Shown in pieces: positions 2,559-29,298 of a stretch of DNA of 64,000 nt. A program made the translations under genes and the position numbers. The stretch's first letter is position 1; every line of letters begins with the position of its first letter. The notes under the pieces are model-generated. The model did not search any database. It saw nothing but the letters and a program-made list of their open reading frames with translations, and had not been told where the DNA came from. The DNA is from a virus (lineage: Duplodnaviria > Caudoviricetes): IMG/VR virus record IMGVR_UViG_3300027847_001698; one strand, given 5' to 3'.

Positions 2559-2569
2559 ATATTATCTCC

Positions 2570-4733: not shown

Positions 4734-4751
4734 TTATACGTCTCCTAGTTA

Positions 4752-5450
4752 CTAATATGGGAGAGTACCAACGACTTTCCCTGTTTCTGTAATCATTTTA
4801 ATTTCAGGCTTAGGTGGAAGAACTGATGTAGAATCTTTCTTCTTATCACTTGATCCCGGATACATATCTTTTCCCCATGTCATATTACATTCTTCAGTAG
4901 TAATAGTCGCTAACCCCATTATCCTTTCACGTTCGTCGTCATCAACAGGGTAAGTCTCTATTATATGCTTCCAATTCCCGCTTACGTGGTCAATAGGAAG
5001 GTTTAAGTATCCATTATGATACTTAGCATGTAAATCAGATAACAATGGCATACATCCTACTTTGTTTTGAAAATGTAATTCAATAACATCCTTACATATA
5101 TCAAATGTACAGAAAGATAATCCTTTATTTAATTTATCAGATATTACAGCTTTACAAATAGTAAAAAGGTTTATTGGATGGTGATGTATTTCAATGCTAC
5201 ATTCAGAAGATAACTCTTTAGTCAAAGAACATGCATTCTTCCCTAAGTTTTCAACTAAATATCTTATCCATTGTTTATACTCTAAACTACTTCTAATCAA
5301 TCGTTCAGTATTTTTTATAAACTTGATAAAATCACTTTCAGCATAAAAACATTTTATACGGAGAGACAAAGTGAAGGGACTATCATTTACTTGTATAGTA
5401 TTATCTTCTTCGTCGTTAGACTGTTGTATTAATTCTTTTTCTAGATTCAT
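4752..5450 (-). CDS. Hypothetical protein with HNH-like metal-binding pattern
   Basis: C...C-x-IEIHHHP...CMPLLSDLHAKYH. Confidence 0.4.
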   Translation of the reverse strand: MNLEKELIQQSNDEEDNTIQVNDSPFTLSLRIKCFYAESDFIKFIKNTERLIRSSLEYKQWIRYLVENLGKNACSLTKELSSECSIEIHHHPINLFTICKAVISDKLNKGLSFCTFDICKDVIELHFQNKVGCMPLLSDLHAKYHNGYLNLPIDHVSGNWKHIIETYPVDDDERERIMGLATITTEECNMTWGKDMYPGSSDKKKDSTSVLPPKPEIKMITETGKVVGTLPY

Positions 5451-6789
5451 TTACTGCATCCGTAAATCCATCGTGATACATAGATAGCCTGTTAATAGCT
5501 TCATTCTGTACATCCATGCTTTCTTTCATTTTCTTGAGATTAGTTCTCTTAAACTTACCAACTACTCGTTTAGTAAATCCTGATAAGGCTTCTAAATCTT
5601 TAAATAAATCTGAACCATTTAAACTATGGAACAGATGTGAATATGGAATCTTTGTACACATTCCACCTTCATAATAAGAGCAAAAGATCAATTTCTGTTC
5701 GGTATCATTCATTACCCCAAAACTATTCCATCCTACTTTAAATAATTTTGAAACCTTAGCTGGGTCTGAAAAGAAATCTTGTTCTTGATGGCGAATATCA
5801 TCTGCGCTCATTAAAACTATTGCCGCTGAATATTTTTGATAACTTGGTCCTTGTGTACTCGATCTAAATGTACCCGCATCAATGTATCCTTTCTTATTCA
5901 AGAGAATATCTTTGTACAATGAAATATCCTCACCATCTATAAAAATATTGGTAAATTTTCTAATCATTGTTCCAAAATAAGAATTAAGTTTTCCTGCAAA
6001 TGCCCTAAATACTCCTTTATAAATAGAAGAATATTTATTAGCATAGTAATCATCAACTAGTACATCATATATGCTTGAAAAATTATTTGCTATCATTGGA
6101 ACTACTTTAACACTTAATGGAATTGATCTTTCGTCAGGCTCACCACGGGTAGGAGCATCAAAATGTATCTTCTGTCTTACCTCTATCTTAGCGGTAATAG
6201 AAGTAGACGTAGGACGCAAATCTAACATCGTACTAGTATCTACTCTAATATTAGTTGCTCCTTTTGAATATGTTGCCTTAGGAGCTTTATCTTTTTCTTT
6301 AGCTGCTGCAGCTACATCTCGCTCTGAATTCTGTATTAGTTTTTGGATATGGCGAATATCATCTACTATTGCCTCTAGACTATCTTTTGCGGCGACATAA
6401 TCACCATATAACTTCGAGTCTTTATATCTGCGTTCGTTATCTGGGCCACCGCCAGAATGAGCTGTTGCCTTTCTTATAACTGCTAGAGCTTTATCTCTCT
6501 TTTTTGTGAGATCTGCTAAATCAGTTAGTTGTTGATTTAATTTCTCTTCTAATTCTTCTTTGTTATCTTCAAATAAAATTGCTTTATTTACATCAGTATC
6601 AGTAGACTCCAATCTGATCTCAGAAAATTTACCAGTTATTCTATTTTGTGTAATATAAAACTGGAGAGTTCCACTTGAGACCGCTTCAGTTATGTGGTGC
6701 AGATAGTATAACTCTATAGTCTTTATCATACCGGGAAGATATCTCTCCTCAATATTACCTGAAATAATGGCGGGGTATACAAATATCAT
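5416..6789 (-). CDS. Hypothetical protein (457 aa) with coiled coil; possible head protein
   Basis: ORF track; coiled-coil segment EELEEKLNQQL; several L/I-x-E sites. Confidence 0.65.
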   Translation of the reverse strand: MIFVYPAIISGNIEERYLPGMIKTIELYYLHHITEAVSSGTLQFYITQNRITGKFSEIRLESTDTDVNKAILFEDNKEELEEKLNQQLTDLADLTKKRDKALAVIRKATAHSGGGPDNERRYKDSKLYGDYVAAKDSLEAIVDDIRHIQKLIQNSERDVAAAAKEKDKAPKATYSKGATNIRVDTSTMLDLRPTSTSITAKIEVRQKIHFDAPTRGEPDERSIPLSVKVVPMIANNFSSIYDVLVDDYYANKYSSIYKGVFRAFAGKLNSYFGTMIRKFTNIFIDGEDISLYKDILLNKKGYIDAGTFRSSTQGPSYQKYSAAIVLMSADDIRHQEQDFFSDPAKVSKLFKVGWNSFGVMNDTEQKLIFCSYYEGGMCTKIPYSHLFHSLNGSDLFKDLEALSGFTKRVVGKFKRTNLKKMKESMDVQNEAINRLSMYHDGFTDAVNESRKRINTTV

Positions 6790-6804
6790 CTTTATAATCC
6801 TATT

Positions 6805-7065
6805 TTACCAAAGGGTAACAATATCTCTTTTTTTATTAACTTTTTTCTTTTTAAATTTTTGATTGATATTTTTCAATCTAGAAATTTTAGTTTGAGCCGT
6901 TGTCTCCTCAACAATAGCACTACTATCTTGAGGAGATTCAATAGCTTCTTCTACCTCAGGAGCTTGTGCAATTACAGTTACTGGTCGTTCAGTTAAATAA
7001 TGTTTAACAATAGATTTCTTTTCAGATTCTAATCTATCAGCAACCTCTTTATGAATTGCGGGCAT
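6805..7065 (-). CDS. Hypothetical protein
   Basis: ORF track 6805..7095; the ATG at 7065 (MPAIHK) reduces overlap with 7049..7972. Confidence 0.55.
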   Translation of the reverse strand: MPAIHKEVADRLESEKKSIVKHYLTERPVTVIAQAPEVEEAIESPQDSSAIVEETTAQTKISRLKNINQKFKKKKVNKKRDIVTLW

Positions 7066-7972
7066 TGCGGACATCTCGAGCATTTCGAGTACCAACTTGC
7101 GCTTTCGAAGGCTCTAATCCATGTCGTTTATATAAATCAGCAAGAGCACGTTCATATTGAGAAGCAGAAGTAATCTTTCCAGCTGAAACAGCTTGTTTTA
7201 AACGAAGAACTCCAATTTTTAAATCGCTATTTCTTCCTGTTCCTATTCTAGATACCTTTCTAGCAGCATTAGCCATAGTTGTTCTCAAACTATTAGAAAT
7301 ATTTAATGGATTTAAATGTCTAACAGCTTTTTTTATTCCATGTGTAGTGTCTGTTTTATCTCTGTTATACTTTCTACCAACGGCATGGACAATGAAACCT
7401 TCTTGGAGTGTTCCTGAGTCATCAACTTTTTCACATGTTAATGCTAAACGAACTATTGCATCTCTATTCATCTTATGTGCCTTTTCAAGAATCTGACACT
7501 CAAAACTACAAGTAGAATTTATAGATTCACTTTCAAGCAAAGGAATACCGATTAGACAATTATCTAATGATATCTGCATAAACTTCTCATGAATTATTTT
7601 TCCTTGAAATGAATCTAGGTCTGTAATGTTTCTAGATGTAGATTCTGAGATTATATAATTCTTTAAACTAGTTTTTACACTATTCTTTGATAACATATCA
7701 GATGCTAACATTTTACTTTTCTTCGCAGTATTAACTGCTGATTCTTGTAAAGTCTTAACTGTATTAGGAATAACTCTATTTTTTGGTTTATAACCAACAT
7801 GATTCCAATACTCAAACAAATTACTTAATAATCCAGCCTTTAATACACAATATTCCCGATATGCACTTCCTTCACGAATAATGTTTCTGGCATGGCCATT
7901 AAATAAAATTGAGTCAATAGAATACCAGTTTTCCAAGTTAGTTGAAACCCTTGTTTTAAATGTCTTATCCAT
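7049..7972 (-). CDS. Hypothetical protein, probable prohead core/internal protein
   Basis: Repeated LQES, IISES, LLESES and LQEG sites and a basic C-terminal third; AGAACAA motif upstream. Confidence 0.6.
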   Translation of the reverse strand: MDKTFKTRVSTNLENWYSIDSILFNGHARNIIREGSAYREYCVLKAGLLSNLFEYWNHVGYKPKNRVIPNTVKTLQESAVNTAKKSKMLASDMLSKNSVKTSLKNYIISESTSRNITDLDSFQGKIIHEKFMQISLDNCLIGIPLLESESINSTCSFECQILEKAHKMNRDAIVRLALTCEKVDDSGTLQEGFIVHAVGRKYNRDKTDTTHGIKKAVRHLNPLNISNSLRTTMANAARKVSRIGTGRNSDLKIGVLRLKQAVSAGKITSASQYERALADLYKRHGLEPSKAQVGTRNARDVRNARNS

Positions 7973-8036
7973 AGTATAAGTAATCCTTGTGTATTTTTCG
8001 ATAATAAAAAATCTTTTATTTTTGTTCTGTTAGTAT

Positions 8037-8474
8037 TCAATCAAGTAAATCCGATAAGAGGGATCTATCTGGAATATCTTCCTTGTTCCTATTAGCTCTG
8101 TGTTCCATTCCTGTTATTTCATTATCAGTAAACAATAAACAAAATTCAGAACTATTCTCAACTATGACAGCATAGTAAAAGTCTTTTGCTTTCCAATGCC
8201 TCTTATTTTTATTTGGTACTTGTTCTATTCGGCCTAGTTTTTTAGAACTTCCGAATATTTTAGAGAATAATCCTGTATCTCGTTCTATGCAATCTTCTTT
8301 ATTTTTTGATGTTCTAACCAATGCTCTATCATATTCTTCATGTGTGAGTAACCAACATCTTTCATTTGAGCCATTTGAGTCTTCAACCCAAATGGCATAA
8401 TAAGCATTTTTAGCATTAGTGAATACAGGTTTATCTCTATTTATTATCTCTGTAACTATTCCCATTTTCGACAT
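8037..8474 (-). CDS. Hypothetical protein built from two tandem homologous ~65-aa domains
   Basis: AKNAYYAIWVED...RTSKNKEDC versus AKDFYYAVIVEN...RANRNKEDI. Confidence 0.7.
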   Translation of the reverse strand: MSKMGIVTEIINRDKPVFTNAKNAYYAIWVEDSNGSNERCWLLTHEEYDRALVRTSKNKEDCIERDTGLFSKIFGSSKKLGRIEQVPNKNKRHWKAKDFYYAVIVENSSEFCLLFTDNEITGMEHRANRNKEDIPDRSLLSDLLD

Positions 8475-8485
8475 TTTTAATTCTC

Positions 8486-9781
8486 CTATTCAATTACGGC
8501 TTTATAACGATCTATAATTTCTGTTTGAATTGTCTCTTGTACTGCTGCGTCAAACTCTTTTGCAAACTCGGGATTTTCATTATATTTAACTAAACAATTT
8601 TTAGTCCCTTGCCATTTTACTTCTGGACATGTAATCAATTTACCCCATGCTCCAGGTTGTATTCTTTTATGATTTACTAATAAGTTATAATTAGTCCAAA
8701 AATTAGAAATGCCAGTATTGAAATCAACAACTAACTGGATAATTACATTTGGGGGAAATAACTTATTCTTTACACATTTAGCATCTATCATTACACCATC
8801 AAATCCCCATTGATCATATTTAAGATCAGATTTGACTTTCAATAGTAATAAATGAAATGCATTATATTCAATAGCCTTGCCTCCTGGCATAACTCTATTC
8901 TGGCCTAAGTATCTCAAAGGATTGGCTGTTTTAAATTGTCCTATATCAATTTTATCTCTTAATTGATTGATTGCTATAAGGCTAATATTACTCTTTCTCA
9001 TTTTAGAAATATATCTAGGTAAACAAGATGATAAAATTCTAGCCTTTAAACCCATTGTTTTTGCAGGGTCAGTTTCTTCACTCTCTCTTTCTTTATCCGT
9101 TGACGTATTTGCAATGGAATCCCATGCTACTATAGCTGGATAGTCTTCAATGCCTTTACTTATCTTGTATGCCATAGTACCTTGAATAGTCTTGAAAACC
9201 TTCTCAACCGATATATCAGTTGAAATTTTTAATCGTCTGGCACCCATTGATGCACCACGTTCCACTGTCATAGCTTCCTCTGAATCCAGGAACTTGTGTA
9301 GCAATTTACCATTAAACTTTTTCTGACTAGTGCCTATAATCTGAGCTAGGAGTGCAGACTTAAATGTTCCTGGTTCCCCAACAATAATTGAAAATGCACC
9401 ACATGCAAATCCTCCACCCAAAATAGCATCTAATACATCTACTCCTGTTGGGAAAGTTTCTATGATTCCTGAACTCTGACTTATATCTGCCTTTGTTTCT
9501 AAGAACTCAGAAAAGTCATCAAGTAATTCATCACTCTGAACTTGTTCTTCGTCAGATAGACCATTATCTTTCCAATTGTTGTCTGGCTTTAATACTTCTA
9601 CTTCTTGATCTTTCTTAGAATCTATTAATTTCTGTTCGTCTTCATTTAAATTGAGAGTCATGCTCTCTAATGATTTTTTTGCAGCAGCATTAAGTTCATG
9701 TTCTGCATTTTCATCAAATAGCTCTTCAACGCTATCAACAGTATCTACATCGTCAGGACCTATGGTTATCTCTTTAGGCAT
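8486..9781 (-). CDS. uvsX: RecA/UvsX-like recombinase with acidic N-terminal extension
   Basis: PTGVDVLDAILGGG, Walker A GEPGTFKS, FLDSE, WDSIA, INQLRD, PGGKAIEY. Confidence 0.93.
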   Translation of the reverse strand: MPKEITIGPDDVDTVDSVEELFDENAEHELNAAAKKSLESMTLNLNEDEQKLIDSKKDQEVEVLKPDNNWKDNGLSDEEQVQSDELLDDFSEFLETKADISQSSGIIETFPTGVDVLDAILGGGFACGAFSIIVGEPGTFKSALLAQIIGTSQKKFNGKLLHKFLDSEEAMTVERGASMGARRLKISTDISVEKVFKTIQGTMAYKISKGIEDYPAIVAWDSIANTSTDKERESEETDPAKTMGLKARILSSCLPRYISKMRKSNISLIAINQLRDKIDIGQFKTANPLRYLGQNRVMPGGKAIEYNAFHLLLLKVKSDLKYDQWGFDGVMIDAKCVKNKLFPPNVIIQLVVDFNTGISNFWTNYNLLVNHKRIQPGAWGKLITCPEVKWQGTKNCLVKYNENPEFAKEFDAAVQETIQTEIIDRYKAVIE

Positions 9782-9847
9782 TTATAACTTCCTCATCTAT
9801 TCTACAAGTGTTAAACTTATTGTTAATTTATTCTTAATCGCCATTTA

Positions 9848-10216
9848 TTAATCCTTAGTTGAAACTTTAAGACCTTCCGATTCTAGTCTCGCTACAATGT
9901 CTCTAACGCCCAATTCTTCATCACCACCCGCAGCACTTAGCTTTCTTCTCACTTCAATTTCTTGTAGAATAAGTTTATTAATTTCTTGATTCATTGTTAA
10001 AATAGTAGAGAAGAAAGATGTAGTCGTTTTAACTTTTTCTTCCATTATGAACTTATGTTTATAATCCATATCCTTAGGAAAAATAGCAGAGACCCCATCT
10101 TTCAAATCATATAGATCTTGTAGATCAGTTTCTATTCTTGCTTTCTTCTCAGTTAGATCAGCTAACAGTTCATAAATTTTAGGATCAATTTTATCTACTG
10201 CAAAATCATCTGCCAT
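9848..10216 (-). CDS. Hypothetical coiled-coil protein
   Basis: ORF track; 3 nt from the actin-like gene. Confidence 0.7.
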   Translation of the reverse strand: MADDFAVDKIDPKIYELLADLTEKKARIETDLQDLYDLKDGVSAIFPKDMDYKHKFIMEEKVKTTTSFFSTILTMNQEINKLILQEIEVRRKLSAAGGDEELGVRDIVARLESEGLKVSTKD

Positions 10217-10218
10217 TA

Positions 10219-11280
10219 TTAATCCCCATAATCAGATATACCCTTTATTAATAATCCCTCCGCTACACATGCTAGAGGATCTTGAGCATGAACTATGTCC
10301 TGTATCTCAAATGGAAATTCATCATAATCACCAATGATCCCTTTAAACATATCCATGAACCCTTTAGCCATACTAGTTCCACCAGATACAACCACAGGGA
10401 CCGATTCGGGCAATTGAACGTCCTGTAGTTCATTGTCTAATTTATCTTTAATGGTGTCTAATGCATATGTTATTAAATTCTGATAGTAATAACAAATAGC
10501 TTCTCTAATTCTACGTTCTTTTTTGTTTCCTTGTTTATAATCCGAAATATCTGTATTATTTTCTTTTATTGATGTGATTCTGTTTGGAACTGTTCCAAAT
10601 TGTCTAGCTACATTGTCGTCAATCCAATCTCCACCTCTACCAACACTAAATTCCAAAACTAGATTTCCTTTAAAAGACATAGCACAATTCGTCATACCCG
10701 ACCCAAATGAAAATGAAAGCCCAGTAAAATTACTATCTGAACATTCATTATATATTATAGCCATTGCTTCATTGACAGGAACTGCTTTATATCCTAACTC
10801 GTTGAATATTCGCTTAAATACATTTGTATGGTACAAGATATCATTATTAGAATCTATTGATGCAGCAGGAATTGAATAATAACATATTCCGTTTTTGGTT
10901 CGACCAACTAAATGTTCCATAACTAATGCAAGAACATCTAATGAATCAACATCTGATGATGATATAAGACCGTCTTTCATTGGTCTCTTTACAGGATTAC
11001 CAAAAATATTAGCCATCCTATAAGCATCTTCTGATATGATGTATATCATATCTTCTGTTTCAACATAACTAAGTTGAGTTAAATCGGAAACATTTGACGA
11101 ATCCTTTTCAATTGGAAGATACATATTTCTGATACTTTTTACTGATATAGCCGAATCATTATCATCCTGTCGGGCACAAACTAAGTTCATTGTACCCACA
11201 TCGAGTCCAATAATATCTAGCTTTTCTTCTTGTTTAGATGTTAAATCTGTTATTTCGGATTCATCTTTTTTCTTTGGCAT
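10219..11280 (-). CDS. Actin-fold ATPase (MreB/MamK/ParM-like)
   Basis: Phosphate-1 IGLDVGTMN, YSIPA, connect-1 NEAMA, phosphate-2 SFGSGMTN, GGDWID, adenosine VSGGTSMAKGF, connect-2 DPLACVAEG. Confidence 0.88.
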   Translation of the reverse strand: MPKKKDESEITDLTSKQEEKLDIIGLDVGTMNLVCARQDDNDSAISVKSIRNMYLPIEKDSSNVSDLTQLSYVETEDMIYIISEDAYRMANIFGNPVKRPMKDGLISSSDVDSLDVLALVMEHLVGRTKNGICYYSIPAASIDSNNDILYHTNVFKRIFNELGYKAVPVNEAMAIIYNECSDSNFTGLSFSFGSGMTNCAMSFKGNLVLEFSVGRGGDWIDDNVARQFGTVPNRITSIKENNTDISDYKQGNKKERRIREAICYYYQNLITYALDTIKDKLDNELQDVQLPESVPVVVSGGTSMAKGFMDMFKGIIGDYDEFPFEIQDIVHAQDPLACVAEGLLIKGISDYGD

Positions 11281-11779
11281 CTTCTTTTCCTATATTCTTA
11301 AGGTTTTTTATTCTGTCTTTTATGTTTTTTAGTGGTTTCTTCTGTTTAGTATTTACTACACCCTTTACAGACATTCCACCTGTATCAATAGTTGGAATAT
11401 AATCATCAACATCATTCTTGTTAGTTCTTTGTTTAGATGTATCATCATTTCCAGATACAACAATTCCACTAGTCACCAATATCTGAAGTTGGTCATTTAT
11501 TAGAGCTAAAGACTTATCTAAAGATCCAGATTTATCATTAACTAATTTTTCCAATTCACTAAACCGTTTATTAACACTAGATCTTAATCTATTTATAGAT
11601 TTTTCAATTGTTGGTGCATCTGTATCTTCTTCATCATTACCAAGAACAGGAATATTATATTGATTGTGCATAAGGTCACACATCATGTCAAGATTTTCTA
11701 ATACCCGTCCTTCCCAATTTATCTTAAGTTTTTCAGCATCCCTTTCAAGTTGCTTGGTTCTCGCTTTTATATTACTCAC
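11261..11779 (-). CDS. Hypothetical protein with coiled coil, overlapping the actin-like gene
   Basis: ORF track; 20-nt overlap with the actin-like start. Confidence 0.7.
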   Translation of the reverse strand: MSNIKARTKQLERDAEKLKINWEGRVLENLDMMCDLMHNQYNIPVLGNDEEDTDAPTIEKSINRLRSSVNKRFSELEKLVNDKSGSLDKSLALINDQLQILVTSGIVVSGNDDTSKQRTNKNDVDDYIPTIDTGGMSVKGVVNTKQKKPLKNIKDRIKNLKNIGKEDAKEKR

Positions 11780-11800
11780 ATTCCACTCAATATGTTATGA

Positions 11801-14356
11801 TTATGAACAACCACTAAATCCACAGTTTGTACACATTATGCAACCATTTTCATACTTTAAGGATTTAGTTTCACAACTGGCACAATAATCTGCGGATGTT
11901 TGTCCATCGTTGATATATTTCTTTAACACTCTTGAAATTCCTTTCTCAAAAGTAAACATATTTATATCTGATGTTTTGTGAAGTTGCTCACATATAAAAT
12001 GAATCGGTACATAATGTCTCAACATTGTTGATACCATTCTAGTATACGTTCCCAAATCCGGTCTAAATGAAGATGCTAAATCCTTTATTACCATTCCTTC
12101 ATCCCCATCTACAGATCCTAAATACAAATCATAAGTCCTAATACCATTATCACTTCTTTTATTTTTCTTAATCCACCCTGACTTATATTTAGACGGAATA
12201 GATATTTCTCCCTTCTGACCACCAAATATCTCATACGGTTGGCCATCAATTTGTCCTACAAAAAAGATCCATTCGTTTCCTTCAATAGTTGAATAGTGAA
12301 TATCACATTGTAACATATCAGGACGTTTAGATGGAAAAACTTCTTCATTTTTATCTTCATCAATTGGTTCTTTTGATATTAGAACTCCACTTCTGCAACC
12401 ATCTCTATAAATTGTAATACCCTTTAATCCATGTTTCCATGAGTCCATATAAATATCACAAACTTCATCAACAGTAACATCACTTGGTAGATTAATAGTA
12501 GAAGATATAGAATGAGTTATATATTTTTGAACAATGCCTTGAAGTTTAACTCGTTTGCTCCAATTGATGTCCGACGCAGTACATCCCCAATATGGAGATT
12601 CTTCTAAATTAGTTTTCTTTGTTGCTGTTCTCCATGCTGCTAACTGTGGATGATCTGTATCAAATTCCATCCATGAATCACCAAGGTCATCAACAAAATC
12701 AACTTTTGCACCTGGATCATTTGGATTTACCTTTCTGCGTCTTGTATATGATAATTGGTATACTGGCTCAATGCCGGATGAAACGTTAGCCATAAGTGAA
12801 ACTGTTCCAGTAGGAGCAACTGTACTTATTGATACATTACGTCTACCATATTTCATGTTTCGGTTATATATCTCAGGAAAATCAGATTTAAGCATTTGAA
12901 TGAAGTCAGAAGTTTTCTCTATGTTGGGATCGAATCCTGCAAATGGACCCCTTTCAACAGCCATATCAATAGATGAATCCCATTCAGCTTCACACTTAAC
13001 TTTCATTATCATATCAGTAATAGTTAAAGCATCATCGCTATCAAACTTGATATTTTGTGCCGCTAAACAATCACCTAATCCAGTAAAACCTAATCCGGTT
13101 CTTCTTCCCTGTTCTGCCTGAAAACGAATCTCCATCCATGTTCGTTTTTCTATCTCTTTTATATGTACAGGACAGTCATCAGAAGCTACCTTTTCTAAAA
13201 TTCTATCAATGTATTTAATTTCCAAATCTACAACATCATCCATAAGGCGTTGTGCTTCATACGTGTACTCATAAAACAATTCAAAATCAAACTGTGCATT
13301 TTCAATAAAAGGGTTCTTTACAAAGCTATAAAGATTCATACACATCAATCTACAAGTATCGCCGCCCTGCATCGCAATTTCCGAGCAAGGATTTGTAGAA
13401 CTATTCTCATACTGAGGATAAACTGAAGATGGCGAATAATTATGCTGAGTATCCCAAAAAATTAAACCAGGTTCTGCTGTTGAATGAGCAGATTCATTTA
13501 TCTTCATCCATAATTCTTTTGCATTAACAGTCTTGTAAATATTATCTGAATTACATGGCCAACACAAATCAAATGTATCATCATTTTCAACTGCATTCAT
13601 AAAATCATCACTAAGACGTACTGATATATTTGCACCAGTCACCTTAGTCAAATCGGCTTTAACTGAAATAAACGCTTCAATGTCAGGATGCCTAACGTCC
13701 ATTGTAATCATCAATGCTCCACGCCTTCCACCTTGTGCAACTTCACGTGTAGTATTAGAGAATCGCTCCATAAAAGAAACTGATCCAGTTGACGATATCG
13801 CCGCATTACTCACATGTGTGCCTGCTGGTCTTAAATCAGAAATATCGACTCCAACCCCACATCTCCGTTTCATCAATTGTGCTAACTGTTGATCACTATA
13901 ACATATACCCGCATATGAATCATGTGGGGGATCTATAACCACACAATTAGATAGTGATCCAATCTGTTTATCATTACCCAATATGGACATAATTGATCCT
14001 TGGGGTATTATATATCTAAATCCGTGTATAAGATGATAAATTTTAGAACGAGTTAATTGTTTTCTATTTCTGCCATACTCTGATAATTTTCCAGTATCTT
14101 TTACCTTTTTAGTTGATTCTACTTCAGATTTAAAAAATTCATCAGCCAATCTGCTATGCATATCATCTGGGGTTAATTCAAAATAGTTTCCACTAGAATC
14201 TTTTACACAATATTTATTTATCCACGTTGTTGATGGTAAATCTTCTCCGTTGAAATAATTAGTAGCGGCACCTAATACATCCTCAAATTTATAGCTATCC
14301 ATTTTCTTCTTAGTTCTCCTAGATTTTTTAACTACAGTACTCTTCTTTAAGACCAT
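11801..14356 (-). CDS. nrdJ: Class II (adenosylcobalamin-dependent) ribonucleotide reductase
   Basis: SNCVV, NPCSE, RRTGLG, TVAPTGTVSLM, KGITIYRDG, C-terminal Cys cluster; AAGGA RBS before the ATG at 14356 (track start 14389). Confidence 0.93.
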   Translation of the reverse strand: MVLKKSTVVKKSRRTKKKMDSYKFEDVLGAATNYFNGEDLPSTTWINKYCVKDSSGNYFELTPDDMHSRLADEFFKSEVESTKKVKDTGKLSEYGRNRKQLTRSKIYHLIHGFRYIIPQGSIMSILGNDKQIGSLSNCVVIDPPHDSYAGICYSDQQLAQLMKRRCGVGVDISDLRPAGTHVSNAAISSTGSVSFMERFSNTTREVAQGGRRGALMITMDVRHPDIEAFISVKADLTKVTGANISVRLSDDFMNAVENDDTFDLCWPCNSDNIYKTVNAKELWMKINESAHSTAEPGLIFWDTQHNYSPSSVYPQYENSSTNPCSEIAMQGGDTCRLMCMNLYSFVKNPFIENAQFDFELFYEYTYEAQRLMDDVVDLEIKYIDRILEKVASDDCPVHIKEIEKRTWMEIRFQAEQGRRTGLGFTGLGDCLAAQNIKFDSDDALTITDMIMKVKCEAEWDSSIDMAVERGPFAGFDPNIEKTSDFIQMLKSDFPEIYNRNMKYGRRNVSISTVAPTGTVSLMANVSSGIEPVYQLSYTRRRKVNPNDPGAKVDFVDDLGDSWMEFDTDHPQLAAWRTATKKTNLEESPYWGCTASDINWSKRVKLQGIVQKYITHSISSTINLPSDVTVDEVCDIYMDSWKHGLKGITIYRDGCRSGVLISKEPIDEDKNEEVFPSKRPDMLQCDIHYSTIEGNEWIFFVGQIDGQPYEIFGGQKGEISIPSKYKSGWIKKNKRSDNGIRTYDLYLGSVDGDEGMVIKDLASSFRPDLGTYTRMVSTMLRHYVPIHFICEQLHKTSDINMFTFEKGISRVLKKYINDGQTSADYCASCETKSLKYENGCIMCTNCGFSGCS

Positions 14357-14396
14357 TAAAAAAACTTCCTTTCTTGTCGGATTCTTCAAATCCTAA

Positions 14397-15143
14397 TCAT
14401 TCTAACTTCTTATGTAAACAAAGAGCGATACCGATAGAATCCGCAATATCTGAAGATACTCCAGTTTGTGAATAGATGTCATTTCCTATCACGGATAACT
14501 CTTTGTCGATTTCCTTTTGCTCAATCTTAAATTTGATTTTATTATTTTCATAGAGCAAGGTCTCATCCTTTATTTTGTTCTCTATTTCAACTTTTTCATC
14601 TCCACTAAATGGGTTTCGTTTTCTCTTCAATGACGACTTTAGTTTATCTAGAAGCTTCTTTTCACCAACTAATTGCTTTTTAAAGTTATCAATATAAATA
14701 TTCTTTTCTGCTATTAAATAATCAAAAGTTTCAAAATCACCAGTAACACTAATGTTAAAAGTTCGACATACCTCTAATTGTGTTTTCCATTTTGGTGTGT
14801 TGGATGCAATTCCATTCAATGAATTGGATTTCCAATGGCTAGGATCATACAATACAATATTGTCTTTTACTGCTGAATATGCAGCATGTATAAATACTCC
14901 ATTTATCCTAGCCAAATACGTCAAAGTCTTAGCTCCTGAAATAGCCAAGATTACATCCTCCATAGCAACATAATCAGGTTTATATCTATTAAATAATCGA
15001 GTAGCTTCATTGTGATAGAAACTTAATTTCTGAGGAAGACTTAATTTAGACGATGGGCAAATAGATCCATAATCAACTAACAATCCATCATCTAATACCG
15101 ACCACCCTGTTGTGGTGGCCGGATCAAAGCCTAATATTATCAT
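14397..15143 (-). CDS. ruvC: RuvC-like Holliday junction resolvase with long helical insertion
   Basis: ILGFDPATTTGWSV, VAMED, DIADSIGIAL. Confidence 0.85.
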   Translation of the reverse strand: MIILGFDPATTTGWSVLDDGLLVDYGSICPSSKLSLPQKLSFYHNEATRLFNRYKPDYVAMEDVILAISGAKTLTYLARINGVFIHAAYSAVKDNIVLYDPSHWKSNSLNGIASNTPKWKTQLEVCRTFNISVTGDFETFDYLIAEKNIYIDNFKKQLVGEKKLLDKLKSSLKRKRNPFSGDEKVEIENKIKDETLLYENNKIKFKIEQKEIDKELSVIGNDIYSQTGVSSDIADSIGIALCLHKKLE

Positions 15144-15625
15144 TATGGAGTAACCTTCTCTCGTATATCCATTAATATTTTACCTAATTGATTTTGACCT
15201 CTATTTGAATAACCCCAATAATTACTAAACGGTGACATTTCCCGAAGTTCTTTATCTCCAGTTGAAATTAGACGTGACTTCAATTCAGGATTCTGATCAA
15301 ATTTAGCATAGCAGCCATCATACATCAACTGCCACTTGTTATTATCCCAATCATCTATTGACTTGCACCCTTTAGATATAGCTTTAGCTTCTGCTGGAGT
15401 AGTTGCCGCCTTTATGTATGCCCAGTCTCCAGGTTCATCACATCTTCTAGTATAATACCATTGTGCCACACTATCCCACCATTCATCATCCAAATAAAAC
15501 TTTGATGGATGAAATACTGATAGAAAATAAAACACACTGCTACTATGTGGACCATGGAAATCTATATAAGATACTCCTCTTGGGATATTTATAACTTTAT
15601 CTCTTTTCTGTTTTTTTAATGCCAT
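15143..15625 (-). CDS. NADAR-domain protein (YbiA-like)
   Basis: FLSVFHPSKF, AKAI, MYDGCYAKFDQNPELKSRLISTGDKELRE, YWG, NQLGKILMDIR. Confidence 0.9.
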   Translation of the reverse strand: MALKKQKRDKVINIPRGVSYIDFHGPHSSSVFYFLSVFHPSKFYLDDEWWDSVAQWYYTRRCDEPGDWAYIKAATTPAEAKAISKGCKSIDDWDNNKWQLMYDGCYAKFDQNPELKSRLISTGDKELREMSPFSNYWGYSNRGQNQLGKILMDIREKVTP

Positions 15626-15640
15626 TTTATAACCTCTCTA

Positions 15641-16570
15641 TTATAAAGACCAAGATTGTGTATGTAATTTCACAATCTCAGAAGTAACATTCTCATTATC
15701 AGGAATACTAACAATATTACAAGCTAAGTCAAACTCATCTACTGAATTATCAAAGAATACTGTACATTCCAATTTGTGACATAAACAATATGTAATATAT
15801 CTCGACGGAAATCCAAAGAATCGTTCACATGAATGTAATATATTTACTATATTTTGATCCGTTACATTTGAAACTGGCATCACATTCAATAATTCTTTTA
15901 TTTCAGACATCTGATGATATGTATAATGTTCACTTAGATCACCTAATATGTAAACTATCAGTGATTTATGTTTTCTTGCTAAAAATTCTAAATAACTAAA
16001 CTCAATCATTTGGTCCTCATCAGATTTCTCTAAGTGAAGAATAATAAATGGTCGGTGTGACTGAATTCTTGCAGTTGGAGGCATTAAAAAGAAATCATCT
16101 TTCTTTAAAGAATTAAATTCTTCTATAACGCCATCCTGTTTATTATTACCATGAATAGTTTCAGGTTTACCTTTTGGTGTTTCTACTATTCTAGGATCCT
16201 TTTTCTTTTCCTTTTCAGTTCTCATATCAGAAGCAGTAAAATCAGTTATGCAATCATGATCTGCTTCCTCATCAACTTTTCCACATTCTACACATAAAGA
16301 TTTCTTTCGTCTATATGATAAAATAGTTTTTATTCGCGCATCCAATTCAGGAATAACCTTTAATGGAGTAGATTCTTCGGGTTTAAGTTCGGGCTTACCC
16401 GAAATTATATCTTTGTCTTCTAACTCAACTCCTCTCATATCAGATTTAACATAATTTTCATAACATGTATGTTCTGATTCAGCTTCCGCTGTACCACACA
16501 ACACACATAAATCTTTCTTTTTTCTATATCCGGAGATAGATCTCTTTTTGGGTTCTGATACTCTTTTCAC
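15641..16570 (-). CDS. Protein with two CCHC Zn-finger-like repeats and a C-terminal domain resembling a degenerate GT-B half
   Basis: YRKKKDLCVLCG..EHTC..SDMR and YRRKKSLCVECG..DHDC..SDMR; the C-terminal assignment is tentative. Confidence 0.55.
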   Translation of the reverse strand: MKRVSEPKKRSISGYRKKKDLCVLCGTAEAESEHTCYENYVKSDMRGVELEDKDIISGKPELKPEESTPLKVIPELDARIKTILSYRRKKSLCVECGKVDEEADHDCITDFTASDMRTEKEKKKDPRIVETPKGKPETIHGNNKQDGVIEEFNSLKKDDFFLMPPTARIQSHRPFIILHLEKSDEDQMIEFSYLEFLARKHKSLIVYILGDLSEHYTYHQMSEIKELLNVMPVSNVTDQNIVNILHSCERFFGFPSRYITYCLCHKLECTVFFDNSVDEFDLACNIVSIPDNENVTSEIVKLHTQSWSL

Positions 16571-16578
16571 TTAAATTC

Positions 16579-17811
16579 CTATAGTTGTAATAATCTATTT
16601 ATTTTTTCGTGTGCCTGTTCAAAATCAATATTATTGAAACAAGGGGACATTCCATTATCATTAAATGGACATGGGGTATGACCATGTAAACAACAGTATC
16701 GCCCACCATAACTACATACATCACTTGGCTTAGGTTCTATGTAATCAACATTATCATATAAACTAACTCGTATATGACCAGGAAATGGACCATACAATGA
16801 AAATGCAGGAACCCCCAATGCAGCAGATAAATGTACAAACGATGAATCTGGTGTTATAACCATTTTAGAATGGGCTATAATACTAACAGCAATAGCTATC
16901 GTTGAACTTAACTTTGATATGTTATATACATTCTTTCTTAAATCAGGAGGGATAGTTGCTTCAATAAACTTATCCATCTGTTCTTTTAAATCTGGTCTGT
17001 CAACTATGACTATAGTTCTACCTTGTTCTAATAATGGAGTTAAAATATTCTTCCAGCATAGCAATGAAGGAGTTCTAATAGGTGACGAAGCTCGTATCTG
17101 AACTCCTATAAATTCACCTGCGGTTATACCCATCTCTTTCAGTTTAGCAGCTACAATGTCGTTATTTTCAGTTTTAGTGTACTGTATGGGTTTTAATTCA
17201 TTATCCGGTATATCAAGTCCCATCCACCTTGAAAATAGTTTATATGCATTTACTTTCTTAGCTTCATTGCATCGCTCTATGACTCCTTCAAATGTTACAT
17301 GATAATCTGCTTTCTGAAAGTAGTTATAATCAATTGGTAGGTGGACCAACTCATCTATACATTCCCAATTATCAACTAATGAAAAGTAATTAGGAGCACA
17401 CGAGAAGATTATGTGACAGCTAGGATATTTCTTTTTGAGATAGTATAGATTAGGCTGGATAAACATCAAGTCACCTATTCCTCCAGTTCTCCACACCAAT
17501 ATTGATTTGTTAGTTAAATCTTGTCCATTGTATGGACGATATATATCTTTGAATTTAACCTTGGAAGGTTCTAAACATTCATCCCCATTAGGATCTTGTT
17601 TTAATCTATCATACAAATAGATAGACATTACCTTTGATGTTCCTTTTGTGAATTTATGCTTTGCAAATCTATCTATTGAAAATTCAAATGTGACTTTAGA
17701 TGTTCCTATAACCATACCTGGGGTAGATTTTCGCAACTCTTCAATATTATCATACATAGTAGTAACATCGCTATGGACAATACCTAACTCAGTTAATAAT
17801 TTAGGATCCAA
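16579..17811 (-). CDS. Glycosyltransferase family 9 (ADP-heptose:LPS heptosyltransferase-like)
   Basis: RTGGIGDLMF..P..YLKKKYP..HI, ITPDSSFVHLSAALGVPAFSLYGP. Confidence 0.88.
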   Translation of the reverse strand: MDPKLLTELGIVHSDVTTMYDNIEELRKSTPGMVIGTSKVTFEFSIDRFAKHKFTKGTSKVMSIYLYDRLKQDPNGDECLEPSKVKFKDIYRPYNGQDLTNKSILVWRTGGIGDLMFIQPNLYYLKKKYPSCHIIFSCAPNYFSLVDNWECIDELVHLPIDYNYFQKADYHVTFEGVIERCNEAKKVNAYKLFSRWMGLDIPDNELKPIQYTKTENNDIVAAKLKEMGITAGEFIGVQIRASSPIRTPSLLCWKNILTPLLEQGRTIVIVDRPDLKEQMDKFIEATIPPDLRKNVYNISKLSSTIAIAVSIIAHSKMVITPDSSFVHLSAALGVPAFSLYGPFPGHIRVSLYDNVDYIEPKPSDVCSYGGRYCCLHGHTPCPFNDNGMSPCFNNIDFEQAHEKINRLLQL

Positions 17812-17813
17812 TT

Positions 17814-18158
17814 CTAATTTTTCCTCAGGTTCAATATTAATTCAGTTTGCTTATGTAATATAGAATCGTGTAAACAATTCAAGGTAGTTGAATCAAACAG
17901 AGTAACTGCTCTTCTACCAGCCTTCTCCAAAAAATCAAAATATTGAGTTATATGGGTTTCTACTTCCTCCATTTGAGAGATCGGATTCAATAACGATAAA
18001 GATATAGCTTTTATAATCGAATCATTTCCTTCACGGTATAACTCTTTCTTATCTTTGTTATCTAATATTTTAGATCTACTTCCTATCTTTGAAATCTTCC
18101 TAAGAAGTATTCTCTTAGTTTTTCTGTAACTTCCAACTTCAATTTTAATTTTTGCCAT
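17814..18158 (-). CDS. Hypothetical protein
   Basis: ORF track; first gene of the long minus-strand operon. Confidence 0.65.
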   Translation of the reverse strand: MAKIKIEVGSYRKTKRILLRKISKIGSRSKILDNKDKKELYREGNDSIIKAISLSLLNPISQMEEVETHITQYFDFLEKAGRRAVTLFDSTTLNCLHDSILHKQTELILNLRKN

Positions 18159-18368
18159 TTACTCATTTATTCTTTATATAAGTAACAGTATCTTATTTGT
18201 GAGTATAAAAAGATATATTATATATATTAATAATTGGAATACTTCTTATGTAGTATTCTGTGGTGGTAGCTGGTGGGATTTTTATTATCAATATTATTTA
18301 GAACATATTTAAAGAAGGTTCATCAACGATACAGCCTTCAAAAAGAAACTAAAAAAAGGAAACACAAA

Positions 18369-18596
18369 ATGGAAAGCAACGAACAAGTACCAGTACCAGT
18401 AGCGGAAGTAGAACTAGATGCATATGATTCAACTATTTCATCACTACAAGGCAAGTTCACTGCATTCGTAACTGAAGCTCAATCCGGAAAAGGAAAAAAA
18501 GCCTCTGCTCTTAGAGCAAGAAAACTAAGTCTCGAACTTAGAAAGGATCTACAAGAATTCAGATCAGCTTCAGTTACTAACGATAAAGCACACTAA
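18369..18596 (+). CDS. Histone H1-like Hc1-family nucleoid protein
   Basis: FTAFVTEA..GKGKKASALRARKLSLELRKDLQEFRSAS matches the Hc1 pattern as recalled; AAGGA RBS before ATG 18369. Confidence 0.8.
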   Translation: MESNEQVPVPVAEVELDAYDSTISSLQGKFTAFVTEAQSGKGKKASALRARKLSLELRKDLQEFRSASVTNDKAH

Positions 18597-18612
18597 GATT
18601 TTATTTTTTAGT

Positions 18613-18655
18613 AAAAAAAAAGCGACTTAGGAATAACCCCCTAAGTCGCTTCTTT
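18613..18655. terminator. Bidirectional intrinsic terminator
   Basis: A-run, AGCGACTTAGG / CCTAAGTCGCT 11-bp stem, T-rich tail, between convergent genes. Confidence 0.85.
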
Positions 18656-18666
18656 CACGTCTTGGA

Positions 18667-19203
18667 CTACTCTGGTGACTTCATCAACTTGATTCCGAAC
18701 ACTTGTTGGGCATCGGTGATGAACGAGGTCACCGCAGCATCCCGTGCACTCAAATGCAAAGCACGAAGTCTATCAATTTGATCATCGATTTGATGGAGGG
18801 CTGTTGCGTATTGTGTCGGCGTTGTCGCTGCCTCCACATCATGCTGAAGCATGTCGAATTCAGTACGACGTGACTTCGGAGGTGTGGGGGTAGATGACGG
18901 AGTAGCCACCACCATCTCCTCCACATCCAAATCAATCAGATGCGAAACATCCATATGACGTTTTCCCTTGATCCGGTTCTTTCCCTTGTTTCCTTTCTTC
19001 CACCTTTGCCTATCAATGGTGGTTATCCCGAGGATGTTGCAAATATTCGTCGACCGCATCGTGGGATATATGGTCGCGATTGCATTGTACTGCCCCAAAA
19101 GAATTCCCTTCTGATCTTCGGACCACATCCGGGAAATTCCTGAACGCTTCTTCTTCATACTGATCGGACCCAAAATAAGGTCCTGTTGGACGTTGATGGT
19201 CAT
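18667..19203 (-). CDS. GC-rich accessory protein with putative N-terminal HTH
   Basis: WSEDQK...NICNILGITTIDRQRWKK; about 47% GC in a counted 60-mer; GAGGGA RBS. Confidence 0.65.
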   Translation of the reverse strand: MTINVQQDLILGPISMKKKRSGISRMWSEDQKGILLGQYNAIATIYPTMRSTNICNILGITTIDRQRWKKGNKGKNRIKGKRHMDVSHLIDLDVEEMVVATPSSTPTPPKSRRTEFDMLQHDVEAATTPTQYATALHQIDDQIDRLRALHLSARDAAVTSFITDAQQVFGIKLMKSPE

Positions 19204-23204: not shown

Positions 23205-23315
23205 GATACTCTACCATAATACGATAGTATCATTGGAGACTAATCCATTTCAAGTCTCATCCTTCCCTATAAGGGATGAGTAGTGATCATATTAATAATA
23301 CTAATATTGATCACT
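23205..23315. ncRNA. Candidate structured RNA element (hairpin cluster)
   Basis: Stems GATACT/AGTATC, GAGACT/AGTCTC, CTCATCC/GGATGAG and AGTGATCA/TGATCACT within 110 nt, just after an AGAACAA motif (23169). Confidence 0.35.
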
Positions 23316-23374
23316 GCCTTTTAACTCTCAATAGTTTTTGGGGTTCTAACATAACATAACATAAGAATAATTAA

Positions 23375-24097
23375 TTGAAGTTAAGGAGATTTTATAGTCC
23401 TATGAGACTAATTGGGTATTCAAGTGGGGCACTAGCTAAAGGGAAATTCAACGTTGCAATTGATATGTTAAATAAACATAAAAATGTTACAGCAATTGAA
23501 TTATCCGCTCTATTATACTCTGAACTAAAAACATTAATAGATGCAATTCATACATTAAATTTATCAAAATATGAATACATATCCATACATGGTCCCAAAT
23601 TTGAAAATGAAACAGAGGAAGAAATAACAGTAGAAACATTACTTCCTCTAATAGATTTAAATTGGAATATTATATTACATCCAGATGTGATATGTGATAT
23701 TAATAAATGGAAAGTATTTGGGAAATTACTATGTATTGAAAATATGGATAATAAAAAATCATTTGGCCAAACAGCAGAAGAATTACAAACCATATTTGAA
23801 GAGTTACCAGATGCGTCAATGTGTTTCGATATAGGCCATGCCTTTCAAGTAGATCCTACAATGAAAGAAGCAAAGAAAATTCTATGGATGCACGGTCACA
23901 GATTACAAGAAATTCATATGAGTTATGTAAAACCAGATGGTAGTCATAATCCTTTATCAGTTCAATGTTACAAGCAATACCAATTAGTAGCTAGATATAT
24001 AACAGAAGATATACCAATAATATTAGAATCTGGAATAGAAGCTAATAAAATACAAGATGAACTTAAAACCGCTCATAAGTATTTAAAAATAAAATAA
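23375..24097 (+). CDS. Xylose-isomerase-like/AP-endonuclease-2 TIM-barrel protein
   Basis: SIHGP, ILHPD, IENMD, CFDIGHA, EIHMS, IILES metal-binding pattern. Confidence 0.8.
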   Translation: MKLRRFYSPMRLIGYSSGALAKGKFNVAIDMLNKHKNVTAIELSALLYSELKTLIDAIHTLNLSKYEYISIHGPKFENETEEEITVETLLPLIDLNWNIILHPDVICDINKWKVFGKLLCIENMDNKKSFGQTAEELQTIFEELPDASMCFDIGHAFQVDPTMKEAKKILWMHGHRLQEIHMSYVKPDGSHNPLSVQCYKQYQLVARYITEDIPIILESGIEANKIQDELKTAHKYLKIK

Positions 24098-24140
24098 ATC
24101 TAATCTTTTAACTTTTAAAAGAATGTTTTTATTTTAAATA

Positions 24141-24690
24141 AGAACAACAAACAATTGCTACAATGGTATGTTGAATATTATTCTCAAGTCGTTAGACAAT
24201 TCAACAGTAAATAGTCCTAAGCAATCAATGGATGTCAGTTTTTTTAGTTCCGAAAGGAACTTAGGATGTTTCTGGCCTTGGAAATAATCACCCAAGTATT
24301 AAAACCAAAAAAATAACCTGAATAAATAGGCCAAAGTAATTTCTATCGGGTCAGAGAAAGATTCGATGCGTCAGCTTTAATTCCTGCACTGAAAATCAGA
24401 TGGAAGGTCAAGTCATTTTAATCGGATGGTGGCGCGATCGGAGGGAGGGCGTAGCCCTCCGATTAGCCCAAGTTCAAATATCCTATTAACACCTGAAGAT
24501 TAAATATTAATCAAATAATCAAGCAAAAACAGAAGAGCGCGGAACGCCAGTGGATGTGCCTCTACTGGAGCTAGAAGTTCAGAAAGAATCCAATTAAAGG
24601 GGAAAAAAAGGAAGTTAATTAAAGAGAAATTCGTCAAGATCCAAGTGCCCCAGGAAGGCAGTCCTGACGGACAGCTTCCCTCCTAGGTCT
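24141..24690 (+). ncRNA. Candidate large structured ncRNA (~500 nt)
   Basis: No track ORF; GC-rich stems with A-rich linkers: GTTCC-GAAA-GGAAC, TCCTAA/TTAGGA, TGGCC/GGCCA, GGAGGGC-GTA-GCCCTCC, CCAGTGGA/TCTACTGG, GTCC-TGAC-GGAC in GGAAG/CTTCC; AGAACAA motif at 24141. Confidence 0.5.
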
Positions 24691-24698
24691 CAGATAAA

Positions 24699-25037
24699 TC
24701 AATATTCTTTGATTTCTTCTTTCAATTGAATATTATTAGATTGTGAGTTAATAACCTTTTGAACCCTTAAGATTACTAACTTCTGACAGATTACAAAGAT
24801 GACAATTAATAATATTTCAAATGTAATCTTCTTCCATGTATAAATATCAAAGATACAAGTTAAGATAATCAATGAAAGGGATATAAGTGACAACCCCATT
24901 ACATATTTAAATATTATCAATCCTATAAATTCTTTTTTAATTGTAAATGGTGAAGGGATAATATCCCATCCAACTGTAAAAGTTGATACTCCCATTAATA
25001 TGCATCCTACTGCAAGAAAAAGAGTTAAAACATCCAT
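24699..25037 (-). CDS. Small multi-pass membrane protein (112 aa)
   Basis: Three hydrophobic segments. Confidence 0.7.
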   Translation of the reverse strand: MDVLTLFLAVGCILMGVSTFTVGWDIIPSPFTIKKEFIGLIIFKYVMGLSLISLSLIILTCIFDIYTWKKITFEILLIVIFVICQKLVILRVQKVINSQSNNIQLKEEIKEY

Positions 25038-25217
25038 TTTTTTTGATTCCGATTAGTGTTAGAAATGATTAGAACTATTTTAAAGTTCTAATTGTGAGAT
25101 GAAGGAGATAATATTCAATAAACTTCCTTCGGTCGAATTACCCTCTTATTTTCCTACCCGGTGGGGAAACCCTTCGGGTTTATCCTGTCCTTCGGATAGA
25201 TAAGTTTATCTTGATCT

Positions 25218-25562
25218 TTAAGTTACGAGGTTAAATATTATTAATGATATAAATGATATAATTACATATCCAATAGAAGCCTGAAATGCAGGTTCGCTTT
25301 TTCTAATAGTTGAATCATGATATGTTGCACCAGCCAGAAATGCGAATCCAATAGATATGATATGAGACATAAAAATAATTACAAATGATACTATCTTTAA
25401 GGGATAAATTATCATTGCAAGTATGACGAGTACCACACATGCTGTATTTGTCCCTTTTAATTTTTCAGTGTTTGATTGGTATAAATATCCAGCTGTTGCA
25501 GAACACCCAACTGATACTATTACTAATACCATAGTGATAAGTAAAGATGATAAAATAATCAT
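25218..25562 (-). CDS. Small multi-pass membrane protein (114 aa)
   Basis: Three to four hydrophobic segments; leader similar to that of 24699..25037. Confidence 0.7.
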   Translation of the reverse strand: MIILSSLLITMVLVIVSVGCSATAGYLYQSNTEKLKGTNTACVVLVILAMIIYPLKIVSFVIIFMSHIISIGFAFLAGATYHDSTIRKSEPAFQASIGYVIISFISLIIFNLVT

Positions 25563-25971
25563 TTGATTTCCAGATTGAGTGTTATAGATTCAGAAGAAGT
25601 GGAATCTAAAAATATATAGAAGTTCTGACAATAGGCTAAGTAATATCAAAACTCTTACATTCTCTAATTTTATTAAAGACCACAAGTTAATCAATTCTTA
25701 GATTTTTATTTGGATCTTAAGTTTAGAAATTATCTGATTTGTTATAGATATTTTTATTTAAATTAAGGCTTATTAATCTTCCTGTTTTAAAAGATAACAT
25801 ATCTTCTTTGGTAACTACTATCCAATTTAGTGTCTATCATATACTGATGTATGGGATGTCATCATTTGTGAGATTCATTAGTTGATACGCACCCTGATGT
25901 AATAACAAGTATGATTATTATGAATAGATGTCTCATGAATAAAGATTCATGTTGGGATAGATTGTTAATTC

Positions 25972-29286: not shown

Positions 29287-29298
29287 ATATATATAGAC
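29287..29298 (-). promoter_or_regulatory. Accessory-gene promoter-like motif
   Basis: ATATATATAGAC. Confidence 0.55.

Follow-up and report, generated by a model that had tools for sequence, protein, structure and literature searches.

The window analysed here is a stretch of 64,000 nucleotides (record bases 121369-185368) from the IMG/VR virus record IMGVR_UViG_3300027847_001698 (G000), a sequence of 193.5 kb, estimated to be 61% complete, that belongs to an uncultured marine jumbo phage. The annotated genes of the window are of the type carried by large tailed phages and include a T4-type family B polymerase with an N-terminal UDG-like domain, a UvsX-like recombinase, a ribonucleotide reductase, an RFC-like clamp loader and a portal protein. 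A gap of 601 nt (24098-24698) lies within the replication module, with the polymerase and AP-endonuclease genes on one side and the clamp-loader and primase genes on the other. The gap, its flanking genes and the elements discussed below are arranged as follows.

23375-24097, plus strand: AP-endonuclease-fold gene, the upstream neighbour of the gap (stop codon at 24095-24097)
24104-24135, plus strand: AT-only 8-bp hairpin TCTTTTAA-CTT-TTAAAAGA (24104-24122), present in both the MFE and the centroid fold, then a T-rich run (24123-24135)
24141-24164, plus strand: promoter-like element, AGAACAAC (24141-24148) followed by TGcTACAAT (24156-24164), an extended -10-like box
24169-24206, plus strand: predicted 5'-terminal 8-bp hairpin UGUUGAAU / AUUCAACA (pair probability 0.94, single-sequence partition function)
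24215-24220 and 24261-24266: TCCTAA and TTAGGA, enclosing GTTCC-GAAA-GGAAC at 24247-24260 (direct reading)
24246-24261, plus strand: AGUUCC-GAAA-GGAACU tetraloop hairpin (pair probability 0.96)
24262-24270 and 24477-24485: predicted 9-bp long-range helix (probability 0.93), its 3' strand falling in the conserved block
24273-24277 and 24329-24333: TGGCC and GGCCA (direct reading)
24421-24489, plus strand: conserved block, comprising the alternative 5' strand ATCGGATGG (24421-24429), the hairpin at 24437-24463, TAGCCC, 14 nt and CTATTAA (24483-24489)
24437-24463, plus strand: G-rich hairpin, ATCGGAGGG / loop / CCCTCCGAT, with a register duplication of the G tract, GGAGGGAGGG, at 24440-24449
24547-24568, plus strand: small hairpin CCAGU / ACUGG with a 12-nt loop (direct reading; the partition function prefers a slightly different pairing at 24530-24567)
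24653-24679, plus strand: 3' hairpin GGAAG..GUCC-UGAC-GGAC..CUUCC, with no U-run after it and ending 20 nt short of the stop codon of the convergent 112-aa gene
24699-25037, minus strand: small multi-pass membrane protein gene, 112 aa, convergent with the gap RNA
25218-25562, minus strand: small multi-pass membrane protein gene, 114 aa, convergent with the gap RNA

The gene preceding the gap may have a history of its own. The closest homologues of the AP-endonuclease-fold protein (44-49% identity) are mostly on cellular contigs, and in two of these (L107:6001-6717 and L108:6001-6774) the homologue sits directly 3' of a gene with a weak match to NTP_transf_2 (nucleotidyltransferase). By sequence, the phage gene looks like a cellular acquisition inserted between a QSregVF_b-like gene and the RNA. 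Contigs of 297 kb and 318 kb carrying homologues were considered as phage relatives and rejected, the contigs being cellular. The strongest GC island of the record by far lies elsewhere, about 3.9 kb past the end of the window, where a 400-nt tile (G000 189220-189619) reaches 67% GC against 33% for the record.

An initial annotation of this DNA, made by reading the letters, had proposed a structured non-coding RNA in a region free of open reading frames. The second part of that claim is firmly supported, as each of the six frames of the gap contains 8-19 stops (14 in the first frame) and the longest open stretch is 60 codons. The gap is neither coding nor a recently decayed gene; a pseudogene remnant can be discarded, since every frame is interrupted. 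A leaderless ORF of 39 aa (24168-24287) was also considered and was dropped, having no counterpart in the related contig L091. The helices and motifs that had been listed could all be located by direct reading of the sequence. The gap had further been described as having GC-rich stems in an AT-rich genome, and its GC content of 0.395-0.42 does exceed that of the flanks (~0.30), but the enrichment is moderate, reaching only the 93rd-98th percentile among 400-nt tiles of the 193.5-kb record.

Several stable hairpins, a GNRA tetraloop among them, can be drawn in the RNA. Yet the predicted folding energy of the whole gap (MFE z = -1.9 on the plus and -1.8 on the minus strand) is no better than that of dinucleotide shuffles and prefers neither strand, and the same holds for 150-nt tiles of the plus strand (z from -1.3 to +0.3). 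In these models, hairpins are present but the sequence alone provides no statistical evidence for an unusually structured RNA. The picture of an ornate, highly structured molecule was therefore not sustained; on the comparative side it is backed only by one 8-bp hairpin aligned between two sequences, described below.

Evidence that the gap is expressed comes from three seawater metatranscriptome runs (X1-X3), each from a different study and each containing part of the region 23300-25700. Their contigs were placed on this 2.4-kb stretch at the following positions.

24170-24649: X1 contig, 480 nt, matching over its entire length with a single difference, G>A at 24602
24168-24407: X2 contig, 241 nt
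24175-24372: X3 contig, 198 nt

The left ends of the three contigs (24170, 24168 and 24175) fall within 7 nt of one another. The difference at 24602 is the only polymorphism found among DNA contigs of the same phage, and the X1 contig therefore derives from the same phage lineage. Outside 24168-24649, a single X1 piece of 129 nt was placed at the far left edge (23300-23428); the AP-endonuclease gene is otherwise uncovered, as are both membrane-protein genes and the other intergenic DNA, and no contig in any of the three runs bridges the upstream gene and the gap. Absent contig cover does not prove that the flanking genes are silent, and these Logan contigs, of low depth (2.8-4.5), carry no strand, true ends or quantitative level. 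Carry-over of DNA would nevertheless cover the 2.4 kb evenly, yet three independent libraries cover one sub-region with near-equal left ends, which argues for a discrete RNA. We regard this as good evidence for a discrete RNA of ~0.5 kb that is more abundant than its neighbours, though not as a mapped transcript. The earlier proposal that the gap gives rise to a separately transcribed RNA, for which a discrete transcript had been the suggested check, has thus gained support from RNA libraries.

The arrangement of terminator, promoter-like element and RNA start favours transcription from the plus strand with an independent start. The AT-only hairpin and T-run at 24104-24135 are probably a weak intrinsic terminator of the AP-endonuclease-like gene, judging by their sequence; a consensus terminator scan, which demands three G-C pairs, did not flag them. 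The RNA contigs begin 4-11 nt 3' of the promoter-like element, and AGAACAAC is found again at the head of the syntenic gap of L091, directly after the upstream gene. The RNA most likely comes from the plus strand, given the position of the promoter-like element and the lack of cover on the convergent gene; an origin on the minus strand is disfavoured because the transcript would have to exclude the adjacent minus-strand genes. The 5' boundary at ~24168 could be a processing site instead of a start. At the other end, the hairpin at 24653-24679 lies just past the end (24649) of the longest RNA contig and may belong to the gap RNA, to the convergent mRNA or to both. The consensus scan also places a minus-strand terminator-like site at 24548-24536.

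The motif AGAACAA had been reported to precede many core genes of this phage. A looser form, AGAACA(A), does occur 20-70 nt upstream of about 8-10 of the 66 ORFs, several of them in the structural region, but the exact 8-mer AGAACAAC is found only three times in the window. That the gap RNA is expressed late is plausible, solely from the presence of AGAACA(A) before structural-region genes. A second motif, ATATATAGAC, also occurs three times in the window (29289-29298, 53123-53132 and 62723-62732; 0.53 expected, with 1 of 100 shuffles reaching three), every copy lying ~40-50 nt 5' of an AGAACAA motif and a gene start, and it may represent a second, composite phage promoter signal. The similar sequence ATATAGAC is found inside the L091 gap near 11636.

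Searches for known families agree with the earlier impression that the RNA belongs to no recognisable class. In a cmscan-type comparison, Rfam 15 gave no match at gathering score in the whole 64-kb window and nothing beyond chance-level matches at E<=10 in 23900-25700 (the best being AdoCbl-II, E 1.4), and neither GOLLD, ROOL, raiA, OLE nor HEARO matched that region at E<=10. A distant-mode blastn search found no match among 50,697 phage records. Complementarity between the RNA and the rest of the record is limited to 14-mers, which is chance level, and pointed to no partner or target. A CRISPR-repeat mimic was dropped as no resemblance supported it.

A tmRNA or tRNA-like identity was rejected, since ARAGORN finds neither a tRNA nor a tmRNA in the 64-kb window. 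The record's own tRNA and tmRNA island is more than 100 kb away: ARAGORN places 12 tRNA genes within the first 19 kb (G000 2082-19062; ~102-119 kb before the window start) and, on the minus strand, the phage's own one-piece tmRNA with a 23-residue tag (G000 17661-18073). Identity with a Y RNA acting with Ro60 was likewise rejected, there being no YrlA or YrlB match at E<=10 in the region and no TROVE match in the 193.5-kb record, itself 61% complete. Two relatives do carry a Ro60 (TROVE/vWA_Ro60) gene directly 5' of the polymerase, a different locus from the gap (L089, 4061-5301; L093, 5054-5195). Beside it are YrlA-like Y RNA matches with E-values of 2.7e-09 and 1.9e-06, below the Rfam gathering score. 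In L089, YrlB also matches weakly, and L089 further includes three tRNAs, a tmRNA scoring 110 bits and, at L089:3154-3345, a group I intron scoring 83 bits. By sequence, these loci resemble a Ro60/Y-RNA module carried by a phage within an island of RNA genes.

Conservation of the gap was examined at several distances. Seven near-identical metagenome contigs, whose AP-endonuclease protein is identical, keep the exact 601-nt spacing with one SNP in the gap and are uninformative for covariation. The next relatives are only 50-60% identical in polymerase or clamp loader, and in IMG/VR no relative exceeds 32% polymerase identity and none of those resembles the gap. The window's gene order of polymerase, QSregVF_b-like gene, gap and clamp loader is shared by three contigs, with gaps of 1.58 kb, free of genes, in L091, 443 nt in L092 and 435 nt in the third. 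Among these syntenic gaps blastn and nhmmer detected no similarity, the pair of window and L091 included. The L092 gap is without similarity to that of the window, which means that the RNA is not conserved throughout the wider group. Other clamp-loader relatives lie on contigs with too little upstream DNA or have a different gene order.

Two further observations concern the same set of contigs. Upstream of the RFC-like clamp-loader gene, the window (25120-25200), L091 (12590-12690) and L092 (11565-11660) each have a group of short G-C hairpins capped by UUCG/UACG-type tetraloops, and GTCCCTACGGGA is common to L091 and L092; this is probably a conserved leader or an element that stabilises the mRNA. 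The L091 gap extends for ~950 nt more without ORFs beyond the sequence it shares with the window. Further RNA genes or an array of promoters may lie in this stretch (L091:12000-12946); in the gap, a palindromic hairpin near 12200-12245 resembles a bidirectional terminator, and TAGAAC/AGAAC repeats are numerous.

Among relatives with a 55-60% identical polymerase, L091 alone shares gap sequence with the window, in the form of a single 62-nt block that was first spotted by eye and then recovered by local alignment. The best alignment of window 24433-24489 to the L091 gap scores 44, compared with 26.8 +/- 3.0 in 300 dinucleotide shuffles, none of which reaches 44 (maximum 38). The block contains an 8-bp hairpin (ATCGGAGG/CCTCCGAT in the window, ATCGGTGG/CCACCGAT in L091) in which all eight pairs are kept, one through a compensatory A-U/U-A exchange. 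The 5' strand is duplicated in register (GGAGGGAGGG in the window, GGTGGGTGGG in L091); the duplicated GGAGG, which had been read from the window as two alternative registers for one helix, is a G-tract duplication at 24440-24449 with a counterpart in L091. A copy further upstream, ATCGGATGG in the window and TTCGGTGGG in L091, can pair alternatively with the same 3' strand, and this alternative helix keeps 13 of 14 cells and shows that same compensatory exchange. L091 carries a second copy of the 3' strand, 11 nt from the first. In both phages the hairpin is followed on its 3' side by TAGCCC, 14 nt and CTATTAA. Within the 193.5-kb record the 9-mer occurs at this site only, twice in direct orientation (once with a mismatch) and once inverted.

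The search for homologues and covariation, which had been suggested as a check on the RNA, was only partly successful: it yielded one compensatory pair with L091, but the comparison rests on two alignable sequences over 62 nt and has no statistical power, some 240 of 500 shuffles being equally good. A covariance model of the block (R1) recovered the window and L091 only among 32 relative loci, and no other among the 118 loci searched. Scanning metagenome contigs with the hairpin pattern produced four chance matches, in high-GC cellular contigs, and when viral and genome contigs were scanned with the pattern's G-tract half, only chance matches emerged, which R1 rejected. A role as a Shine-Dalgarno or anti-Shine-Dalgarno mimic was rejected, as GGAGG is changed to GGTGG in L091. 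Direct and inverted copies that change in concert are equally expected of protein-bound DNA sites (iterons).

Taken together, we favour, with a probability of roughly 55%, a stand-alone gene in the gap for a non-coding RNA of ~480-530 nt, transcribed from the plus strand from its own start. Direct support for this reading comes from the lack of coding capacity, the discrete RNA in RNA libraries, the absence of a known family and the one conserved block; the strand, the transcription start, the use of the promoter, action in trans and the binding of a partner are what we infer. The upstream AP-endonuclease-like gene would end at its own weak terminator, and the promoter-like element at 24141-24164 would start the RNA at ~24168-24170, after which it would build up to a steady-state level above that of the neighbouring mRNAs. 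Most of its sequence appears to be fast-evolving and not demonstrably structured. In the module, a single C-rich 3' strand could have two or three G-rich 5' strands as alternative pairing partners, forming a "sliding" or switching hairpin. Our best guess is that the module lets the RNA, acting in trans, bind or titrate a partner, either a protein or a nucleic acid, the remainder serving as a variable scaffold.

The main rival is a DNA-level element. The block may be a set of iteron-like repeats at a replication origin or another protein-binding site, with the transcript activating or priming, as do ColE1 RNA II and the R-loop transcripts of T4 oriF/oriG. Both ColE1 RNA II, which is ~550 nt long, and the T4 oriF/oriG transcripts are promoter-driven and non-coding, with G-rich segments able to hybridise to DNA. 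Origin primers of this kind form a persistent RNA-DNA hybrid that primes DNA synthesis, and RNA II is further marked by RNase H processing and an antisense counterpart, RNA I. The gap RNA resembles these as a probably promoter-driven non-coding transcript in or beside replication functions that carries G-rich segments. The locus between the polymerase/AP-endonuclease and clamp-loader/primase genes would suit an origin, as would a 9-mer that the record has only here, in its two direct copies and a single inverted one. The L091 copies are separated by 11 and 22 nt, about one and two helical turns, and all copies change A to T in concert, as expected under co-evolution with a binding protein. The RNA is also purine-rich (57% A+G), with conserved G-tracts (GGNGGGNGGG) that favour R-loops, and an AT-rich stretch (24470-24530) follows the block.

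Other features fit an origin poorly. The cumulative GC-skew minimum and the switch in gene orientation are at window position 19171, 5 kb from the gap; this record-wide minimum falls in the divergent intergenic region just 5' of the polymerase gene, and skew here tracks gene orientation, which makes it unreliable for mapping origins. In T4 origins the unwinding element is directly downstream of the promoter, whereas the block lies ~270 nt downstream of the promoter-like element. An RNA that primes replication or forms R-loops would not be expected to build up beyond the mRNAs around it, yet the contigs show that pattern for this RNA, and no initiator gene was identified. On balance we consider a DNA element possible but unlikely. 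It is tempting to speculate that the 62-nt module is a hairpin/G-tract sliding switch at a transcription-primed origin, and that this phage and L091 use a promoter-driven, RNA II-like primer or activator of ~0.5 kb. We would give this idea rather long odds, but if true, the concerted change of the repeats would mirror pairing within the RNA as well as their recognition by an initiator protein.

A less likely explanation is that the RNA is a stable processed fragment, either a piece of the 3' UTR of the AP-endonuclease mRNA or a decay intermediate shielded by its terminal hairpins, with or without a function of its own. There is precedent in ncRNA1 and ncRNA2 of phage PAK_P3, which arise by 3'-UTR processing (PMC10914365). 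These RNAs and the ncRNAs of phiKZ are abundant products of UTR processing, 90-210 nt long and without a start site of their own (PMC10914365). Like them, the gap RNA is apparently abundant, phage-encoded and conserved among close relatives only; unlike them, it is ~0.5 kb long and has a promoter-like element directly upstream. The weak upstream terminator with its AT-only stem, the 8-bp hairpin with which the covered region begins and the lack of conservation over most of the sequence would all suit a fragment. The extended -10-like box and the recurrent AGAACAAC just 5' of the boundary, a motif kept in L091, argue instead for initiation at this point, and in the three runs no contig joins the upstream gene to the gap. 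We judge a processed fragment to be improbable.

A large, intricately folded "ornate" RNA like GOLLD or ROOL, with a fold that escapes single-sequence methods, is the least supported reading, and the likeness that had been drawn to these RNAs holds as analogy only, as tests of family membership fail. GOLLD and ROOL are recognisable across distant phages and in phages and prophages usually lie by tRNA genes. The gap RNA shares with them a phage location, a length of several hundred nt (~0.5 kb) and the absence of coding capacity, and the local GC enrichment in an AT-rich genome, the several stable hairpins with their GNRA tetraloop and the predicted helix 24262-24270/24477-24485, one strand of which is in the conserved block, are all features that such an RNA might have. 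However, it matches no Rfam 15 covariance model, its fold z-scores are ordinary on both strands, and no tRNA gene adjoins it or occurs anywhere in the window. Its conservation amounts to one 62-nt block, with a single compensatory pair, in one relative, and we think an ornate RNA very unlikely.

Least probable is a regulator acting on the convergent membrane-protein genes by 3'-end overlap (antisense or type I toxin-antitoxin-like) or a CsrB/RsmZ-type protein sponge, a class with many GGA motifs that lie mostly in hairpin loops: the two opposite-strand genes downstream do encode multi-pass membrane proteins, an mRNA ending at the minus-strand terminator-like site would overlap the last 100-150 nt of the RNA, and the RNA has 15 GGA against 10.0 +/- 2.2 in shuffles, but L091 carries the block without adjoining convergent membrane genes, type I toxins are usually under 60 aa whereas these proteins have 112 and 114, and the GGA excess is mild (19 of 1000 shuffles reach 15).

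A stand-alone RNA gene of this kind has close parallels in the jumbo phage PA5oct, from which four orphan ncRNAs (ncRNA001-004) of 236-619 nt have been described by RNA-seq in actively transcribed, ORF-free regions, without database similarity beyond the species of that phage (Lood et al. 2020, PMC7318152). Transcription of PA5oct depends on its host's RNA polymerase, and the two ncRNAs that account for 2.4-5% of phage reads, the abundant ones, lie in the terminal repeat (PMC7318152). The gap RNA is likewise a transcribed jumbo-phage region of similar size with no plausible ORF, it appears to reach high levels as the PA5oct RNAs do, and it has no similarity outside its own lineage, with the 62-nt block of L091 as the sole exception. 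It differs in lying in the replication module and in being known from metatranscriptome contigs rather than an infection time course. The gap RNA is thus an orphan, lineage-restricted phage ncRNA akin to those of PA5oct and does not represent a novel type of system.

Stand-alone RNA genes of several hundred nt with no known job recur in jumbo phages. The RNA described here was seen in situ in three independent ocean RNA surveys and is therefore produced in natural infections, by a phage lineage that has been recovered from many ocean samples. It offers an expressed example with defined boundaries and a small module open to mutation and probing, which makes the role of an orphan phage ncRNA testable in an environmentally abundant phage.
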